Part shown: piece by piece, positions 11,779 to 39,256 of the stretch
Position numbering within the stretch: position 1 is the stretch's first letter
Layout of the letters: every line of letters starts with the position of its first letter
Origin: Vermamoeba vermiformis
Taxonomy: Eukaryota
Reading direction: 5' to 3'
DNA length: 39,256 bases
Assembly (NCBI GenBank): GCA_045837725.1
Contig: JBEWZL010000081.1
Location: 62,001-101,256 of the forward strand
Translations under genes and position numbers: made by a program
Notes under the pieces: generated by a model
Databases searched by the model: none
Seen by the model: only the letters and a program-made list of their open reading frames with translations
Told to the model about the DNA's origin: nothing

Positions 11779-14700
11779 TTATTTCGTGTCCTTAACAGCT
11801 TGAGCAATCATCGCAATATTATGTTCTAACAGCCTGTGCAAAGATCTCTTGTAGTACACGATTGATTTTTGCACCAAACTTGCAAATTGATTATTAGCGA
11901 TCATTTGTTCCTCTTCCTGCAAGGTGTTAAAACAAAATAATACAAAACATAGGAAACTCTTACCTGCTTCATCTCGCTGAGTCCTAATGACCCGGCAATG
12001 CCCTCCAACATGGCTTGCAAATTGTTCAACACTTCAGTACTGCTCGTAATGTCGTCCAAATCAGTCACGGCGTCAATTTCATCTTCGTCGCTGTAACACA
12101 CGCGCAGCACTTGAATCAACTTCGGCGATAATGAATTTGGACGGAGTTTGTTGCTAGGACTAAATTTGTTGAATAAGAAAGGTTTCAGTGAACGGATGCG
12201 AGATCCAGATCTTACCTCAACATTCGCTCGCGGATTATTTGTTGCTTTTTTCCTCCCAAGTCTTCAGGCATATCAATATCAATAGGGAATGTGTCTTGAG
12301 GGTTTCCAAGAATCACCGCGCCAAAATGCAGCATGAGCGAAGTGTTGTCTCGGCCTCCAAAATTCGATATATACGTCTATTAGGAATATTAATAATGTCT
12401 TATTAAGGACGTATTGTTTTCGTGCCTGTCCTTGTGATTGCAAGTAAGTGATTGGAATTGAACTTTTGAGCAACAGGTTGTCGCTAGTGTCGTAATTATA
12501 GACCACCGCGCAATGTTCGTTGAATAAATTTGGCGGGAAAACAGGGATCCAAGTCAATTGCACGATGAATTCTTCGTACTCTTGCTCGTGTTCGACGCGT
12601 TTAACCTTTTTAGGAAATCTTTCGGCCATCATCTGCACGAGCGAGTACGCCCATTTAAAGGACTCTAATGTGTAGTTATCGTCGAATAATTCTGGAATTT
12701 CTTGCTTAATTGCATCGACTACGGAAAATTGTTGTTCCAGATCCTCTTGTAGTTCACGTGCATCCACTACAAAATACAATTAATCTCATTTTCAAACAAG
12801 TACGTGCGGAATTTATCATACCTGCTAAGGGGGTGTCGCCCAGCATTTCTAAATCTGATTCTTCGAGGAACAAACCATTGGGGATCCGTTCGGGGATGAG
12901 ATCTGGCAAACAAAATCATCAAATATTATTCCAATTATTTTAATATCAGATCGCCCTACCTAAGAACTCCTTCCAAACAGAATTTGAATTCTTTTGTTTG
13001 ATTAAAAATAAAGCGATCAAAATCTCCGGATCCAGTTCGATTCCGTTTTCAGCGACTAATTCTCCGAAACTAGTGCTCATAATAGTATCAACCGATATTA
13101 AGTATTGACTAGGTACTTCGAATAGTGTGTTATCGCTATTGTTATCTTTTTTCGTGAATTTGCTTTGCCATTGCGCTAACTTCGATTTGTCAATCATTTC
13201 CAATAAAGGAAATACGAAATTGTCTCTCGGTTGGAATTCTTTTGAAGCTGATAAACTAGTCAAATATGAATCTCGCTTAACAGTGATTAATCTAGTCGCC
13301 TCTAGTAAGATCTGTCGTTGTTCGAGTCTGTATTGAACAGCCATTCGTTTTCTATACTCTAAATCCTTATTTTTCAATAAATTTTCATCTTCCTAATGAA
13401 AAAAGTTAATAATAAATAAAATCGAAAAAGTTTTTTTTACCTCGTTTGTGGATCCGTTAATGCGTTGCAATCTTGTCTTCAGCAAGTCCAATAATGTTGA
13501 AAATACTAACAACTCGTTTCTCACGCTAATAATCTCGCTTTGAGGGGTGTAAAAGTACACTTCGTCTTCGTTCATCAAACAAATTCTCATCGCGCCAAAT
13601 AACGACTCGGGAATTGCATTCTGTGTCATATGGTGACGCAAACTAATTTAAATATTAATATTATTGTCCTTTAATATAGATAATAATCTATTTTACCCTA
13701 ATTTCTTGCTGCGTAACAGTCTAATTTTTTCTTGTCTGAATGGATCGTTTTGATGAATTCCGATTTGCAGCCAATAAGTGTTATATTCGTTATTATCCAT
13801 AATAAATCCATAAGACAACATCAATGCCTCGTTAGACTTGGTACCGTAATTGCTACAGACCTAAAAATAGCAACATCGTTAAACTGAGAAATTATTCCTA
13901 ATTTAGTAATTACTTACTTGATTGCCCTGCTTGACAGGATCATATGTAACTTCGAAGAATAGGCTATCGGAACTTTTCACCGCCGAGAAATGTGCCTGGA
14001 TCCGACTTAGTAAATTTCGAATATTTAACAATACAAAACTTACGTGAACGTCAGCGTGATGATTCATGCTGTCACCATAAGGTACCAAACAAGGCACAGT
14101 ACCTTCATCGTCCTCGTCATAGTACAAGTTGGTAGTGTCTTCCACTTGACCCTTTTCAAACATGTGTTGATTGGGTTCACTTTGTGGCATTGACTTTGGT
14201 TTAGTTTTGACTCCAAATGATCGTGAGGCATATAGAGTATGCACCCACTTCACTTCGTCGATTGTAACGAGCGGATCCACTTGCTTCAACAAATTTGTAA
14301 CGTAATCGAGCAACAAATTTACTTGAATAGTTCCCTCTATCAAAAATATTATAATAAAATTCTTAGTATTTGTATAATGTCGATTACCGTATAAATTAGT
14401 TCCCTTAATTTCCTCCAGCTCTTCTTCTGTCCAATAAATCGTCGAATCAAATGACTTTGGAATCATATCTAAGAGTTGTTCGTTAATATAGCTCGTATCT
14501 CCATATTTAATATGTACCTATATAAGGTTTCCAAAGACTGTCAGGCTTTCTGCTTTCTTTAATGAATGCCCAATACGCCAAAACTAATTCAGAATTGATT
14601 TGCAAGTTACTGCTGTTTTGAACGACCAAATGAGATTGATGACCAATAGATTTGACGCTGAATATTTCGGGGAATTTTTTTGTGAGCTCTTCTCGCAAAG

Positions 14701-26069: not shown

Positions 26070-27689
26070 TTACAACTTGGCCTTTTGATAGTAAAGAGGC
26101 TTGTCGCCATTCTCCTCAACGATATGTTTCGGAGTAGTAGCGTTCTTATTAATCGTAGGAAGTTTGACCTTTTTTTGAGAAGGATTTGTGTCGAGCTTTG
26201 GAGCTGGATCTTGCATCTTGGGCTGCTTTAAGTTGCCAGCAGCTGCGAGGACATAAAAATTATCGCATTTGAGTAATATTATAAAACATTTATTCACAAA
26301 AATTAAAAATTATTCGAAAAGGTCATTTAGGCCTCGATTTTCTTCTTCGTACCTTCTTCCTCAGCGATGATTTGTTTCTCTGACGGAGTTGTTTCGGTGC
26401 CCAAAACTTTGTCCTTCACGGTAGTGGCAGCGTGAACGACTGTGTCCTTGATAGATTCGAGACCTTCTTTAGCCTTCTCAATAATAGACTGAGGCTCGCC
26501 TTCGATTGGTTCTTCGGTGACGATTTCTTGACGACCAACTTCGATGCGCTCAGGGCGGTTTTGAACTGTGAGGTCGCTTTCTTTAATGGTTTCAGCAGGT
26601 TCACCTTCAATAGTTTCTTCAATCTTTTGTTCAGTGTTGCCGAGCCATGAACCAACACGTTCCTTGAGCGACTCCAATCCTTCGCGAGCCTTCTCGAGAA
26701 GCGACGCGCTTTGTTCCTTTGTAGTTTCGACAGTTTCAGTAGTCTTGTCTTTGGCTGATTCGTAAGTCTCGACAGTCTTGTCCTTGGCAGTTTCGTAGCC
26801 GCTCTTAACTGTTTCGACAGCTTGTTCAGCCTTCTCGCTTGATTTCTCTGCAGCGACGCCCAATGTTTCTTTAATGCCGTCCTTCCACTCGCCAAGCTTC
26901 TCGACGACTTGGTCCTTAATGTGGACGACACCTTCTGAAACATCGTGCGCTTTCTCGGCAACGTAGTCCTTGGCATCGACGACTTTCCCAACGACTTGGT
27001 CCTTGATGTTAACGGCGCCTTCCTTCACATCTTCAACTTTCTCGGCAACGAAGCCCTTGGCTTGATCGGCCTTCTCGCCAGCGTATTCCTTGACGTCTTC
27101 GGCCTTGTCAGCAACGTAGTCCTTGGCATCGACGGCCTTTTCCTTGAGTTGTTGACCCTTCTCCAAAGCGGCCTCCTTGAGGTCTTGGCCCTTCTCGACG
27201 GCCTTGTCCTTGAGTTGCTTGGCGTCTTGTTTGAGTTCTTCGCCCTTCAATTCGGCCTTGTCCTTCAAGCGTTGAGCCTCGAGCGAGATTTCGCTAGAAA
27301 CATCACTGCGGGTAGCGACGGGTTCACGGGCCTAATGATATAAGAAAATTTAGTGAGTTTAAGCTCAGATCGGAACAACTTAATAATTGCATTTTGAAAA
27401 TTTTGCTTACCTCAGGCAATCCAGAGGAAGAGAAAGTGACCTTTTCTTGGGGCATAACAGCCTTGATATCCTTGACGATTTCAGGCTCGACTTCCTTTTG
27501 TTTTTCGTAGTCTTCAGCGTTTTGTTCAATTTGTTCCTTTACGGCATCTGCGAAGCTCTTCTTTTGATCATTGAAATCCTTCTCGACTGTTTCGGCAATC
27601 TCGACGAGCTTTTCTTCGGCAATATCGGGAACACCCTTAGGCTTGACGATACCCAAAGCAGGAGCGTGAGTTTGTTCTTGAGCGGACAT
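26070..27689 (-). CDS. LEA (group 3-like) hydrophilic repeat protein, with short (stop 26327) or spliced long (stop 26070) C-terminus
   Basis: Exon 27411-27689, intron 27332-27410, exon 2 rich in K/E/A/D 11-mer repeats (AKDYVADKAED, VKDQVVGKVVD, YETAKDKTVET). An optional intron 26243-26352 joins in frame to exon 26070-26242. Confidence 0.8.
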
Positions 27690-36127: not shown

Positions 36128-36888
36128 ATAATTCGTAAGACAAAGACCCCGCTAAGGTGCGTCGGACAAATTGTCCCGTCCTTAAAGTGACGACTATTGT
36201 ATTAGCTTTAACTTGAGCTTTAATTATTTTAGATACGGCTTCACACTGAGTGAACAGCCACACTTCTATTGGCAATGAGATCCAAGTCTACCTAGTGGAT
36301 ATTCCTGAAGATTTTATTGACACTGTGGTTCATGGAGCAGTAAATCACCACTTATGTGGCCAACTGTGAGGAGCAAGTGGAGGCTATCATGAAGAAGTAT
36401 GACTCTCTGGCATCAACAAGTACAACAGATGAAACTAGAACAGTTATTATTTGTACCCCTAATAAATTGGTTTGGTTAAAAGACGGAAATGAATAAATGA
36501 GAGCCCCTTTAATGTGACAAACTTACCACAGGCTGTCAATTGGTTCAAAAACACAGAAATTGAATGATTGCATTTCAAATTGTTCATTACTGCTTGGAAC
36601 TGGTGAAGTCTGGAGTTTGAAGCAGCAACTTGGCATGATCATGTAGACAATATTCAGTCCATCCCTTAATTCCATTGTAGCAATACATATTCAATTGACT
36701 TATGTTTACTGTCCATTATATACCCTTTAGGGTTAGGGCTGGTGGGGCTGCGGTTGGGTGTGAGGCAAGTCAGCCACAGAGGTCAATCAAACATTTATAC
36801 AAATCAGCTGCCACCCGTGGCCAATGTATGTGACAGCTAATAAACAAGATGTTTAGAGTAGCCTGTATACTAGGAAATTGGTACCTTA

Positions 36889-36935
36889 GTTGATAACTGA
36901 CCCGTCCGCCAGGGGGACGGGGGCACGTTATCAAC
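36889..36935. repeat. Imperfect 47-bp palindrome/hairpin
   Basis: GTTGATAAC-tga-CCCGTCC-gccaggg-GGACGGG-ggcac-GTTATCAAC. Confidence 0.85.
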
Positions 36936-37011
36936 CCATGCTACACTGGGAAGGTAAACAGTACCTAACCTGCAAGGTTCAGCTTGAGGTATACCCAGTG
37001 ATAAAAATGAT

Positions 37012-37187
37012 GGATCCCCGTCCGCCTGGGGGTATATTTATTTAATAGGACCCCGTCCACCAGGGGGTATATTTATTTAATAGGACCCCGTCCACCAGGG
37101 GGTATATTTATTTAATAGGACCCCGTCCGCCAGGGGGACGGGGGTATATTTATTTAATAAGGGCCCGTCCGCCTGGCGGACGGGGGG
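37012..37187. repeat. Tandem ~35-bp repeat (4 units plus a terminal palindrome)
   Basis: Unit GGACCCCGTCCRCCAGGGGGTATATTTATTTAATA starts at 37012, 37048, 37083 and 37118. Ends in the perfect palindrome CCCGTCCGCC-T-GGCGGACGGG (37164-37184). Confidence 0.92.
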
Positions 37188-37506
37188 TGCTGTATCACTT
37201 CAGGACGCACTATCATGTACCTTTACCTCCTGCATTTAATATGTGGAAAAACCTGTTTCCTAGGAGTTAGGGTACAAAGGAAGCTGTTTTGGTGTAAAAA
37301 CATGAAAATAAAAATACCTTAATTTGACATCAAAAAGCGTGCAATTATTAAAAAGTATGCAATTTCAGCAGTTGCTGTGCAACTTCCTGATCTGAAGCCA
37401 ATCAGGAAGAGTACACACCAGAAAAAAAAGCCCAAGTTTTTGCTAAAATCTGTTCCCGATTGGGCTCAAATCGGGAAAAAACAACAACATGGTTGATATC
37501 GGCGCA

Positions 37507-37553
37507 GGTTCGAAGCCCAGTACTTGCAAATTGTTGCCGCCAGGATTCGAACC
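37507..37553. promoter_or_regulatory. Two inverted Pol III B-box (tRNA T-loop) motifs
   Basis: GGTTCGAAGCC on + (37507-37517) and GGTTCGAATCC on - (37543-37553). No full cloverleaf is recognisable. Confidence 0.6.
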
Positions 37554-37701
37554 TGTGTGTAGCAAGCAACAGAATTATAAATGCAGTTGGAAAATCCTCC
37601 CAGGGAGGCAGGGAGGCAATTCACCCAAAGTTGAGAAAGTCAATCTGCATCATTTTAATTACCCCATAACGCAGAGCAACACACAAGTCGCCCGCCCAAA
37701 T

Positions 37702-39226
37702 ATGGCAAGGTAAGTCCACGTGCTTTGAAATCTCTGGTGAAATTTCGTTTCCCTGTCCCGATTAGCAGCCAATAGGGAGCAATTTTAAGTTGTTAATTTT
37801 ACAATCCCGATTGGCTGCGTATCGGGAAGCTCCAATTTTTTTAATTCGTTGGTAGCAATCCCGATTGGCTCCAGATCGGGAAGACCCAAATTTAACGAGG
37901 CCCTCGTTAACATCCCGATTGGCAGCCAATCGGGAAAGGAAGGGTTTTTGTCTATGTTGTGGTTCATCCCGATTGGCAGCCAATCGGGAAAGCTCAAATT
38001 TTACAAGTCCCAAGGGTCTTCCCGATTGGCAGCCAATCGGGAAGGGTGCCCTGGGTTGTTTCTTTGCATCATCCCGATTGGCGCCAGATCGGGAAACCTT
38101 TTGGTCTAGTCTACTTTTTGCAAACTTACTAACCTTTTTAACCTGCAGTAACAACACCAACAGATCGTTCAACCCCCCTCGCCAGCACACCGCCGAAGAG
38201 CTGGATAACATGGTACAGCACGTCACAAGGTCTGTGACCAGGAACTCACCCCCAGCTGCCCAAGGCCCAAACAACAACGTCAGCCCTCCGCGACCTGGCC
38301 AAGCAAAGACCCAAGCAGTGGCCAAGGGAGGACTCAAGCTCGCCCTGCCAAGGAGCACCATTGGTGGCAAAGCCCAGGCAATTTTGGCTCCGTCAACACC
38401 ACCCAAGGAAAGGCTTATCCCCCAGTTTGCCACCCCAGACAAGTTTCTTATGGCTGAGGCGGATGACTCTTCCTCTGCCGAAGGTGATGCCGCTGGTGAT
38501 GCCATTGGCCAGGACAACTTCGATGGGATCACCGACACTCAGGCTATAAGGGCAATCGAGGCTTTGGAGTCCGAAGCTGCTGCAGGATCAACAAGACCCG
38601 AGGTTGGCGAGAAAGATAGCGAACCCCAGCAGCAGATGTCGTTGCGAGAATGGGTGGAGCAGCAAATGGACTTGGTGTCCACCGCATCAACATCCATGTC
38701 CAAATTCAGCGATGACATACGTTCGACAGGCCCTACAAATGGCAACTGGTTTATTGAGCCAGATGCCCAGAACCAAGTGTTGGTTTACCGTGGGACCATG
38801 TTCGATGATAAGAACCAGGTCATCAAATTGTCGGGGCCACAAATTATGCTCAAGGTGGTGAAAGCCAACCCATACCAATGGCTTGCCATGCTAGACTTTT
38901 CGCGAGAGGTGCCCACGCTTTACTCACTGAAGGTTACGTCTTGCTGGGCCGTCGACAGTGTCAATGGATGCCTGAAATCCTGGAAGTTGACAAAGCATAC
39001 GACAAAAGGCCAAATCAGCTGGAAGTTTGAAGAGCGGTTCAAAAATTGGAAAAACATGTACGACTTGGCCGTGCAGGAGGGTCCAGTGTCACGACCTGAC
39101 CAACTGACCGATAACCAGCTCGAGTCCATCAGAGAGCTTGAAACCAGGGAGGAGGTCATGATCCAATTGAGCACCCCAGCCCCGCCAGCAAAGGACCCCG
39201 AACCCACGATTACCGAAGAGCAGCAA
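37702..39226 (+). CDS. Unknown protein, 5' part (exon 37702-37709 + exon 38149-39226), probably continuing beyond the window
   Basis: ATG GCA AG|GTAAGT donor at 37710. TACTAAC branch (38127-38133) plus pyrimidine tract and CAG acceptor at 38148 give in-frame MASNNTNRSFNPPR. Open to a second GTAAGT donor at 39227. Disordered Pro/acidic N-half, then a ~130 aa Trp-rich globular segment. Confidence 0.7.
37756..38094. repeat. CRISPR-like array: seven 23-bp palindromic repeats (consensus TCCCGATTGGCAGCCAATCGGGA) with 26-31 nt variable spacers
   Basis: Repeats start at 37756, 37805, 37859, 37913, 37967, 38020 and 38072 (period 49, 54, 54, 54, 53, 52). Degenerate outliers at 37385 and 37454. Confidence 0.92.
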
Positions 39227-39256
39227 GTAAGTTTGGTGCAATTCTAGAATACATCC

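Follow-up and report, generated by a model that had tools for sequence, protein, structure and literature searches.

EBNA1 of Epstein-Barr virus binds repeat units of about 30 bp that follow one another almost without spacer. In oriP, the arrays of EBNA1 sites are described as a platform on which a dimeric protein serves replication, partition and transcription (PMC2654434). Baculovirus hrs, as described in PMC4535591, consist of 3 to 8 units of about 64 bp in tandem; every unit contains a 24-bp imperfect palindrome, and the hrs serve both as origins and as enhancers. For Drosophila enhancers, helical phasing and homotypic clusters of binding sites are discussed in PMC2761283. Also, matches to a CRISPR finder have been reported for the human genome, without cas-type machinery (PMC8993844). 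We describe here an array of regularly spaced 23-bp palindromes, detected in a window of 39,256 nt (the whole stretch of DNA that was analyzed).

The Palindrome Array

The palindrome TCCCGAT-N9-ATCGGGA was matched nine times at two mismatches or fewer in the whole window, against a mean of 0.06 in shuffled sequence, and none of 100 shuffles reached nine matches. The array is genuine and far above chance expectation. Of 16 ATCGGGA heptamers in the whole window (3.2 expected), 15 fall at the array locus. Seven copies constitute the array itself (37756..38094, unstranded as are all palindromes below), with starts at 37756, 37805, 37859, 37913, 37967, 38020, and 38072. A sequence-only reading of the same DNA had counted seven copies at these positions, and these seven were all recovered; the total is nine, as two copies lying upstream had been missed. 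Copy -2 (TCCTGAT...ATCAGGA, 37385..37407, two mismatches) lies 317 bp 5' of the ATG and copy -1 (37454..37476) 248 bp 5' of it. The latter has perfect outer arms and retains the left ATTGG. In copy -2, which retains the right-hand CCAAT, a C-to-T change is matched in both arms, a symmetry of the kind that a hairpin model predicts. All nine copies are thus found within 710 bp around the ATG, and no further copy exists in the remaining 38.5 kb of the window, where the sole other match to the motif is a weak look-alike at 13758 (15.4 bits). Elsewhere in the 39-kb window no promoter carries the motif, and no regulon is visible there. Tandem Repeats Finder gave 32 rows, none of them containing the array, since outside the core the units have diverged too far.

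The start-to-start steps of the array are 49, 54, 54, 54, 53, and 52 bp, and the spacers measure 26, 31, 31, 31, 30, and 29 nt, exactly as the sequence-only reading had it. With a helical repeat of B-DNA of about 10.5 bp per turn, the mean step of 52.7 bp (sd 1.8) corresponds to 5.02 turns. Orientation and phasing are uniform among the array copies. Copies 4 to 6 (37913..38042) are perfect palindromes of the form TCCCGATTGGC-A-GCCAATCGGGA, the identity of copies 4 and 5 being unbroken over 28 nt, while copies 1, 2, 3, and 7 have two to three of their 11 arm positions unpaired, mostly inner ones. The earlier description of three perfect copies, of inner variation in the other four and of nearly fixed arms is thus borne out. 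The closest resemblance is between neighbors (copy 2 with copy 3, copy 4 with copy 5).

Conservation of the Copies

The mean pairwise identity of the seven 23-bp repeats is 87%, and it is unevenly distributed, reaching 98% for the outer 14 bases and 69% for the inner nine. Identity between spacers is 48.7%, against 45.7 ± 1.4% for shuffled spacers (4 of 200 shuffles as high), and by another score 71 of 500 shuffles were as high. Units 2, 3, and 5 are 70-78% alike across 46 nt, and the weak likeness of spacer starts, announced by the sequence-only reading for spacers 2, 3, and 5, is found in units 1, 2, 3, and 5.

Pairing between the arms is not better preserved than in shuffled alignments: 77.9% of cells are paired vs. 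79.0% in shuffles (403 of 500 shuffles at least equal), and the covariation score is 0.082 vs. 0.080 (247 of 500 at least equal). The inner pair 11-17 is broken in six of the eight distinct rows. Therefore, what is conserved is the sequence and not a hairpin. At least one CCAAT or ATTGG is present in each of the nine copies, and both are present in three of them. The ATCGGGA arm is retained beside a lost CCAAT in copies 2, 3, 7, and -1.

Host Gene and Intron

The array is located in a putative gene on the forward strand. The coding part of putative exon 1, ATGGCAAG (37702..37709, +), joins exon 2 in frame and is followed by a 5' splice site GTAAGT at 37710. The putative first intron of 439 nt (37710..38148, +) begins with this GTAAGT, contains TACTAAC at 38127-38133 and terminates with TTTTTAAC then CAG. 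Putative exon 2 (38149..39226, +) encodes an orphan protein, and the further GTAAGT at 39227 indicates that the host gene continues beyond the window. The array takes up 339 of the 439 nt of this intron, which is about 5 to 9 times longer than the other candidate introns of the window (47-83 nt). The genes adjoining the array are ordinary intron-bearing eukaryotic genes, and Pfam, which covered 37 of the 48 ORFs of at least 110 aa, assigned only families usual in eukaryotes, with no cas, nuclease or transposase domain among them. The eukaryotic intron context without cas genes, as proposed from the sequence alone, thus holds for the probable intron 37710-38148 and for these 37 ORFs. The tRNA search and Rfam at gathering score found nothing in the window.

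The host protein has no Pfam family. A word-index search gave one copy at 99% and nothing longer, whereas HMMER retrieved four distant relatives, all unnamed, and one of these relatives (P0002) had no match in viral or prokaryote contigs. No usable match was obtained against the Atlas. AlphaFold gave a poor model (mean pLDDT 49), and fold searches were unclear (best Foldseek E = 0.11; best VIA Z = 3.4). A reading of the array itself as a repeated peptide was rejected, because the 53- and 52-bp periods disrupt the frame and because the open frame across the array has no ATG.

Other Strains and Sequence Collections

The array sequence was also found in an independent read set (X1) and in a water metagenome (X3); therefore the array is no assembly artifact. 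X3, which represents a second strain, has the same cores, with no difference listed over 37750-37877 and 37909-38094, the nearby differences being listed at 38117, 38118, 38180, and 38194. Spacers 1, 2, 4, 5, and 6 are unchanged and spacer 3 is left uncovered by the contigs. Three contig ends of X3 (37859, 37909, 37911) join the core to sequence unlike the spacers of the window, so that the core must also occur somewhere between different flanks. In X1, variant contigs show deletions of 1 nt at 37779 and of 3 nt at 37835, from which it follows that the phasing of the array is not rigid. Two RNA runs under the same species label gave 0 reads over 2.7 kb, a result without bearing on transcription.

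The exact 23-mer with a free center base gave no match in viral, metagenome or prokaryote genome contigs. A relaxed pattern, TCCCGATTGG-N6-ATCGGGA, was matched in at least 122 metagenome stretches and in three viral stretches. Among the matches listed, 120 of 124 loci hold a single site and four (L015, L017, L042, and L086) hold two to three, and none of the 124 presents an array like the present one. Their central sequences partly recur between loci (e.g., L031, L042, L102, and L103). In our view these loci match by chance or belong to repeats of another kind. No viral contig matched two cores spaced as in the array. The blastn search with 37740-38110 returned no phage match and a single plasmid match at E = 0.3, from phage and plasmid collections, which contain no eukaryotic viruses. 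In the literature, at the level of titles and abstracts, the motif searched as 8- to 13-mers returned primers and unrelated sequences only.

The CCAAT Motifs

As for NF-Y boxes, a CCAAT or its complement is present in every copy of the palindrome, and the perfect half GCCAATCGG resembles the extended NF-Y consensus. An NF-Y-type CCAAT-binding complex is one candidate for reading the inner part of the palindrome. NF-Y alone cannot explain the dyad or the outer arms: it requires no dyad, whereas here the outer arms are kept even where the adjoining CCAAT is lost. Several CCAAT boxes per promoter are described as common, with none closer than 19 bp for double occupancy (PMC4889920). The two CCAAT pentamers within one palindrome are 8 bp apart, center to center, and therefore cannot be occupied together. 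A CENP-B-box reading of the palindrome was also rejected, the TTCG part of the consensus being missing by eye.

Interpretation of the Array

The explanation that we favor, and to which we give about an even chance of being right, is that of an old tandem repeat of about 53 bp of which only a dimer-binding site survived, and which is now a helically phased cluster of regulatory sites. The array would be a cis-regulatory cluster for one sequence-specific, probably dimeric, DNA-binding protein, and would control the gene that contains it. It is from the copies, their spacing, their conservation pattern and their position in the gene that we infer such a protein, its binding and any transcriptional effect. 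A unit of about 53-54 bp would have been tandemly duplicated within the first intron, after which the spacers would have drifted nearly to randomness while selection held the 23-bp dyad, chiefly the outer half-sites TCCCGAT / ATCGGGA together with at least one CCAAT per copy. The faint likeness of the spacer starts fits an origin by tandem duplication. Also, a young 35-bp tandem array of a different palindrome (96% identical) lies 600 bp upstream, and the genome thus does make palindrome-bearing tandem arrays. As the mean spacing comes close to five B-DNA turns, the seven sites would all lie on one side of the helix. Bound dimers on this common face could touch each other or one shared partner, and the cluster could work as an enhancer, a silencer or a roadblock. 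With two further sites 250-320 bp upstream, the cluster brackets the promoter and the start codon, and the position of these two copies 5' of the ATG, outside the intron, fits recognition on DNA. The sequence-only reading had leaned toward two alternatives, phased operators recognized by a dimeric protein or a diverged minisatellite that keeps only the binding site. Both agree with our findings and they fit together as two halves of one explanation, the minisatellite being the origin and the operator the present role.

Several observations sit less easily with this phased cluster. Half-site centers 16 bp apart, or about 1.5 turns, would put the two outer arms on opposite sides of the helix for a compact dimer. 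Few binding sites demand as much as the 28-nt identity of copies 4 and 5, which stands next to unrelated spacers and could come from local gene conversion. The lack of a visible regulon in the 39-kb window, the variant contigs of X1 with their looser phasing and the symmetric change of copy -2 also speak against it.

Should the array be a working site cluster, it would be an unusually clean natural case of a tandem repeat that decayed except at a protein-binding dyad, with the sites kept five helical turns apart. The paralogous "footprint" would then mark the bases that matter, namely TCCCGAT in the outer arms and one CCAAT in each copy, and, in a microbial eukaryote that has been little studied, the array could be used as a probe for a DNA-binding protein.

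It appears unlikely to us that the repeat is neutral or selfish and does nothing for the host gene, whether as a minisatellite in decay or as clustered copies of a tiny palindromic mobile element. The cores would then be conserved only through recent copying or homogenization, for example by short-tract gene conversion between palindromes, and several data agree with this: the 28-nt identity of copies 4 and 5, the greater likeness of neighbors (2 with 3, 4 with 5), the three X3 contig ends where a core meets unlike sequence, and an intron 5 to 9 times the length of the others, as after insertion or expansion. Just upstream there is also a high-copy palindromic tandem repeat, with a depth of 130-650 in X1 vs. 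15-27 in flanking bins. However, homogenization in tandem normally carries whole units, yet the spacers here are near random, and orientation and phasing are uniform. Terminal repeats and target duplications are absent, as are transposase domains from the 37 ORFs covered, no copy occurs elsewhere in 38.5 kb of the window, and neither the metagenome nor the viral and prokaryote collections contain the exact 23-mer (center base free).

An action at the RNA level seems to us quite improbable. The intronic palindromes would, once transcribed, fold into hairpins or pair with neighboring copies, with possible effects such as a shorter effective length of this unusually long intron, the recruitment of an RNA-binding protein or the release of small RNAs. 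The folding energy of the intron is -184.5 kcal/mol, vs. -123.2 ± 5.8 kcal/mol when shuffled (z = -10.7), but repeated palindromes give a strong fold by construction. Perfect copies give stems of 10-13 bp at -16 to -21 kcal/mol and neighboring copies can pair as 23-24-bp stems with loops of 28-31 nt, whereas the fold of copy 1 is matched or bettered by 36 of 200 shuffles. Rfam scores the hairpins of the array as weak miRNA-precursor look-alikes, far under gathering score (best 32.8 bits vs. 100). The two-sided change of copy -2 preserves a pair; nevertheless, there is no covariation above shuffles, the inner pairs are broken without compensation in six of the nine copies, and the two copies 5' of the ATG may be untranscribed.

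We consider it very improbable that the array is another cis-acting element on the same plan (a replication origin, an insulator or boundary, or a segregation-type platform) and not an enhancer specific to the gene. Two perfect motifs resembling the B box, the kind of site bound by TFIIIC, stand between the upstream copies and the array, where 0.15 were expected. Palindromic sites in tandem are also the plan on which known origin, partition and enhancer elements are built, as described for baculovirus hrs (PMC4535591) and for the EBNA1 clusters DS and FR in oriP (PMC2654434). Against such a role, the window has no pointer to replication or boundary function, the array lies inside a small gene and not between domains, and it is the single such array in 39 kb.

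A more speculative scheme, to which we attach little credence, would have neighboring palindromes of a transcribed array pair as 23-24-bp stems that are cut into self-complementary small RNAs, around cores with strain-specific spacers. This would be a cas-independent, repeat-centered eukaryotic system with a CRISPR-like layout. Such small RNAs, being self-complementary, would be complementary to every genomic copy of the core, and the X3 contig ends might hint at strain-specific spacers around cores.

Finally, the CRISPR-like reading as a guide-RNA precursor, suggested from the sequence alone, finds no support. An adaptive array of CRISPR type, with palindromes as repeats and with spacers acquired from invaders as guides, is close to refuted and keeps next to no chance, for its layout (23-bp partly palindromic repeats, dissimilar spacers of 26-31 nt) and the strain variation that X3 might conceal (cores with other flanks, spacer 3 uncovered) are outweighed by a eukaryotic, intron-bearing locus, by the lack of cas-like or nuclease domains in 37 of 48 long ORFs, by five of six spacers unchanged in X3, by two copies separate from the array and beyond the start codon, by spacer starts faintly alike in units 1, 2, 3, and 5, by hairpins under threshold in Rfam, by a blastn search of the array without phage match and with a lone plasmid match (E = 0.3), and by the absence of the paired-core arrangement from viral contigs.

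Comparison with Known Systems

The present array shares with CRISPR arrays a repeat of 23 bp with partial dyad symmetry, and spacers of even length (26-31 nt) that are unlike each other. It differs from them in that no cas genes are seen (37 of 48 ORFs), the host is eukaryotic, copies exist outside the array, inner positions of the repeat vary and those spacers that are covered in a second strain show no change. The locus is also a caution that the geometry of a CRISPR array can emerge in eukaryotic DNA with no CRISPR biology behind it.

The likeness to baculovirus hrs lies in seven units of about 53 bp, each with a 23-bp palindrome. However, hr units are conserved throughout, occur several times per viral genome and are bound by the viral IE1, whereas here conservation is confined to the core, the array lies in a probable intron of a cellular gene, and there is no second array in 39 kb. 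With the EBNA1 arrays (family of repeats, dyad symmetry element), our locus shares the arrangement of sites for a dimeric protein, the dimer being putative here; those arrays are viral and the present one is cellular.

Homotypic clusters of transcription-factor sites differ from our array in that its 49-54-bp regularity, and a 23-bp site with three perfect copies, are unusual for a cellular gene. They resemble it in the many copies of a motif that a gene's 5' end carries over a few hundred bp of non-coding DNA, in the conservation of the motif and not of the intervening sequence, and in spacing by whole helical turns. At this locus, these features take the form of nine copies in 710 bp, against 0.06 expected, and of identities of 98% in the arms, 69% in the inner part and 49% in the spacers.

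Palindrome copies at the array locus

Direct reading of positions 37400–38500, combined with a repeat search, showed seven copies of a 23-bp dyad at 37756–38094, starting at 37756, 37805, 37859, 37913, 37967, 38020 and 38072 and separated by spacers of 26, 31, 31, 31, 30 and 29 nt. Copies 4–6 are perfect dyads, TCCCGATTGGC-A-GCCAATCGGGA. These seven dyads and the spacer lengths of 26–31 nt had been described in an earlier sequence-only reading and were borne out here; its count of seven holds for the array, but two additional copies upstream, at 37385 (copy -2) and 37454 (copy -1), had been overlooked, giving nine in total. All nine came from a search for TCCCGAT-N9-ATCGGGA with at most two mismatches, for which shuffles gave a mean of 0.06 matches per window and never reached nine (0 of 100). 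Also, 15 of the 16 occurrences of the heptamer ATCGGGA in the 39 kb of the window fall at the array locus (3.2 expected). Tandem Repeats Finder reported 32 arrays in the window, and the palindrome array is not among them because its units resemble one another in the core alone. Contigs assembled from an independent read set (X1) and from a water metagenome (X3) contain the same array sequence, which is therefore no assembly artefact. A single look-alike of the core was seen at 13758–13780 (17 of 23 bases, 15.4 bits; 0–2 sites above 8 bits per shuffle in 20 shuffles), in or next to a minus-strand SET/Rubisco-LSMT-like gene.

Gene setting and neighboring repeats

The window is ordinary eukaryotic DNA. 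Pfam, run on 37 of the 48 window ORFs of at least 110 aa, identified PPR, TPR/TTC39 and F-box proteins, a methyltransferase, aspartate-semialdehyde dehydrogenase, aspartokinase-homoserine dehydrogenase, and LEA-type and beta-helix proteins; no cas, nuclease or transposase family was found among these ORFs. The array lies in the putative first intron of an orphan gene. The coding part of putative exon 1 would consist of 8 nt from the ATG at 37702, followed by GTAAGT at 37710; the putative intron (37710–38148, 439 nt) has TACTAAC at 38127–38133 and TTTTTAACCTGCAG ending at 38148, and the putative exon 2 frame runs from 38149 up to a second GTAAGT at 39227. Ten other introns predicted by pattern in the window share the layout GTAAGT...TTAAC/CTAAC...AG and measure merely 47–83 nt, so that the array-bearing intron, of which the array occupies 339 of 439 nt, is probably several times the usual length. 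No reads from two RNA runs under the same species label mapped here, which says nothing for or against the putative intron.

The N-terminal stretch of P0002, a distant relative of the host protein (44% identical), aligns with residues that precede the first Met within exon 2; translation should therefore start upstream and would need the spliced exon 1, which lends the putative intron slight support. No Pfam family matches the host protein, and its four distant relatives are all unnamed. Its structural model is poor (mean pLDDT 49), and no convincing fold match was obtained for it (best Foldseek E = 0.11, best VIA Z = 3.4). This small unnamed family shares a conserved beta-rich domain of about 115 aa (query residues ~198–311). 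The exon 2 region (38001–39000) has the highest G+C content of the window, 53% compared with 41% overall.

Other repeats were observed nearby. A second palindrome-bearing array extends over 36684–37235, with a tandem part at 37016–37186 (about 3.5 units of 35 bp, 96% matches) and a solitary copy at 36901–36923; its unit associates a GC-rich dyad of the CCCCGTCC...GGACGGGG type with an AT-rich spacer. X1 depth reaches 130–650 over this array against 15–27 in flanking bins, so that it belongs to a repeat family with multiple copies, which may be a transposable element. The tRNA B-box consensus GGTTCGANNCC has two perfect matches, at 37507 (+) and 37543 (-), in the stretch that separates the upstream palindromes from the ATG; both lie within a 13-nt inverted repeat (region 37505–37555), and 0.15 would be expected in the window. 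ARAGORN found no tRNA. At 1137–1283, a tract of 147 T (98% matches) adjoins a minus-strand oxidoreductase-type gene, and 33-bp (11-codon) repeats at 26874–27265, inside a LEA_4/apolipoprotein-like gene on the minus strand, are an ordinary coding repeat.

Conservation of palindromes and spacers

When the seven array copies were compared in pairs, identity was 98% for the outer 14 bases and 69% for the inner nine. Spacers were 48.7% identical, compared with 45.7 ± 1.4% for shuffled spacers (4 of 200 shuffles reached the observed value). A second spacer score was not significant, with a mean pair of 3.05 against 2.70 ± 0.30 (reached by 71 of 500 shuffles) and a best pair equalled by 35 of 500. 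The weak likeness of spacer starts previously reported for spacers 2, 3 and 5 was found again, in units 1, 2, 3 and 5, while likeness over whole spacers is borderline. Such shared starts would fit units that arose by duplication of a single ancestor, and not spacers taken up from foreign DNA.

Base-pairing as such is not preserved among the copies: 77.9% of cells were paired, where shuffles gave 79.0%; covariation scored 0.082, a value reached by 247 of 500 shuffles (0.080); and six of the eight distinct rows do not pair at the inner positions 11–17. Only one symmetric change was seen, in copy -2 (TCCTGAT...ATCAGGA), counting as one event; as CpG shows no depletion across the window (observed/expected 1.15), simple CpG decay does not account for it. 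As pairing was not preserved, selection would have kept a sequence read on both strands, and this reads as the signature of a dimeric DNA-binding protein.

Comparison with other sequence collections

X3 contigs span 37750–37877 and 37909–38289 with no within-array difference from the window listed, a zero not to be over-read since two X3 contigs over 36753–36902, with 0 and 9 differences, indicate that several haplotypes or copies are represented at some positions. The differences recorded were at 38117, 38118, 38180, 38194 and 37465, the last being the free center base of an upstream copy. Five of the six spacers are unchanged in X3, spacer 3 lying outside contig coverage. Three X3 contig ends (37859, 37909 and 37911), where the core is joined to sequence unlike the window spacers, speak against a simple reading of all spacers as identical. 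Two of these ends are mutually reverse-complementary over 15 nt and together suggest a single, longer spacer flanked by two cores; the core thus exists with other flanks, which may belong to another locus, another strain or a related species in X3. In X1, one contig tracks the window to 37452 and continues with 255 nt of unlike sequence, and depth over 37236–37419 is 2–4 times that of flanking bins, suggesting that a segment immediately ahead of copy -1 may be repeated or structurally variable.

The exact core, with the center base free, had no match in viral, metagenome and prokaryote contig collections, and two cores at the array spacing were absent from viral contigs. Among the matches listed for a relaxed pattern, 120 of 124 loci held a single site and four held two or three; no array resembling this one was present among them, and they are taken as chance matches or unrelated repeats. 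The array gave no useful match in phage and plasmid records. Pieces of the motif, searched in literature titles and abstracts, returned at that level only primers and unrelated sequences.

Spacing and candidate binding proteins

Array intervals are 49, 54, 54, 54, 53 and 52 bp (mean 52.7, sd 1.8). With a B-DNA helical repeat of 10.5 bp per turn, this mean corresponds to five turns, which would place all sites on one side of the helix. This phasing is not rigid, since variant X1 contigs are shorter by 1 nt at 37779 and by 3 nt at 37835.

The inner part of the palindrome is a pair of inverted CCAAT boxes, and the perfect half-site fits well what we take to be the extended consensus of NF-Y, the CCAAT-binding complex. 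At least one CCAAT/ATTGG is found in all nine copies, and both in three; with one in three boxes lost overall, the chance that no copy would lack both is about 0.35 by our estimate, so this retention is only suggestive. The everted CCG...CGG triplets are loosely reminiscent of zinc-cluster proteins. The two pentamers of one palindrome are 8 bp apart, center to center, whereas in human data, according to PMC4889920, double CCAAT boxes are never closer than 19 bp, in agreement with the shortest spacing that allows NF-Y to bind both. Also, the ATCGGGA arm is retained beside a lost CCAAT in copies 2, 3, 7 and -1. NF-Y was rejected as the sole reader on these two grounds, and a dimeric factor would be needed to explain the element.

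Origin and possible function of the array

We favor, with an even chance in our judgement of being right, an old tandem duplication of a unit of about 53 bp that would now provide phased dyad binding sites around the promoter and in the first intron of the orphan gene. The unit would have been duplicated long ago, the phased dyad sites alone surviving, and the array would most likely be a platform at which a dimeric factor exerts an enhancer or silencer function.

That the array is instead a neutral or selfish repeat seems unlikely. A role at the RNA level appears still less probable: the intron folds at -184.5 kcal/mol against -123.2 ± 5.8 kcal/mol in shuffles (z = -10.7), perfect copies yield stems of -16 to -21 kcal/mol, and adjacent copies are able to form stems of 23–24 bp with loops of 28–31 nt, to which Rfam gives weak miRNA-precursor look-alike scores; but the best of these is 32.8 bits for a gathering score of 100, covariation does not exceed that of shuffles, and repeated palindromes give strong folds by construction. 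Another kind of chromosomal cis element is a distinctly improbable reading. The CRISPR-like label of the sequence-only reading is hardly credible, as it fails on machinery (no cas family among the ORFs run through Pfam), on the eukaryotic host, on layout (two copies outside the array) and on spacer stability as far as covered.

In print, the closest architectural match is the baculovirus homologous region (hr), in which a 64-bp unit containing a 24-bp imperfect palindrome occurs 3–8 times (PMC4535591); unlike the present array, hrs are viral and dispersed, and their conservation extends over the whole unit.
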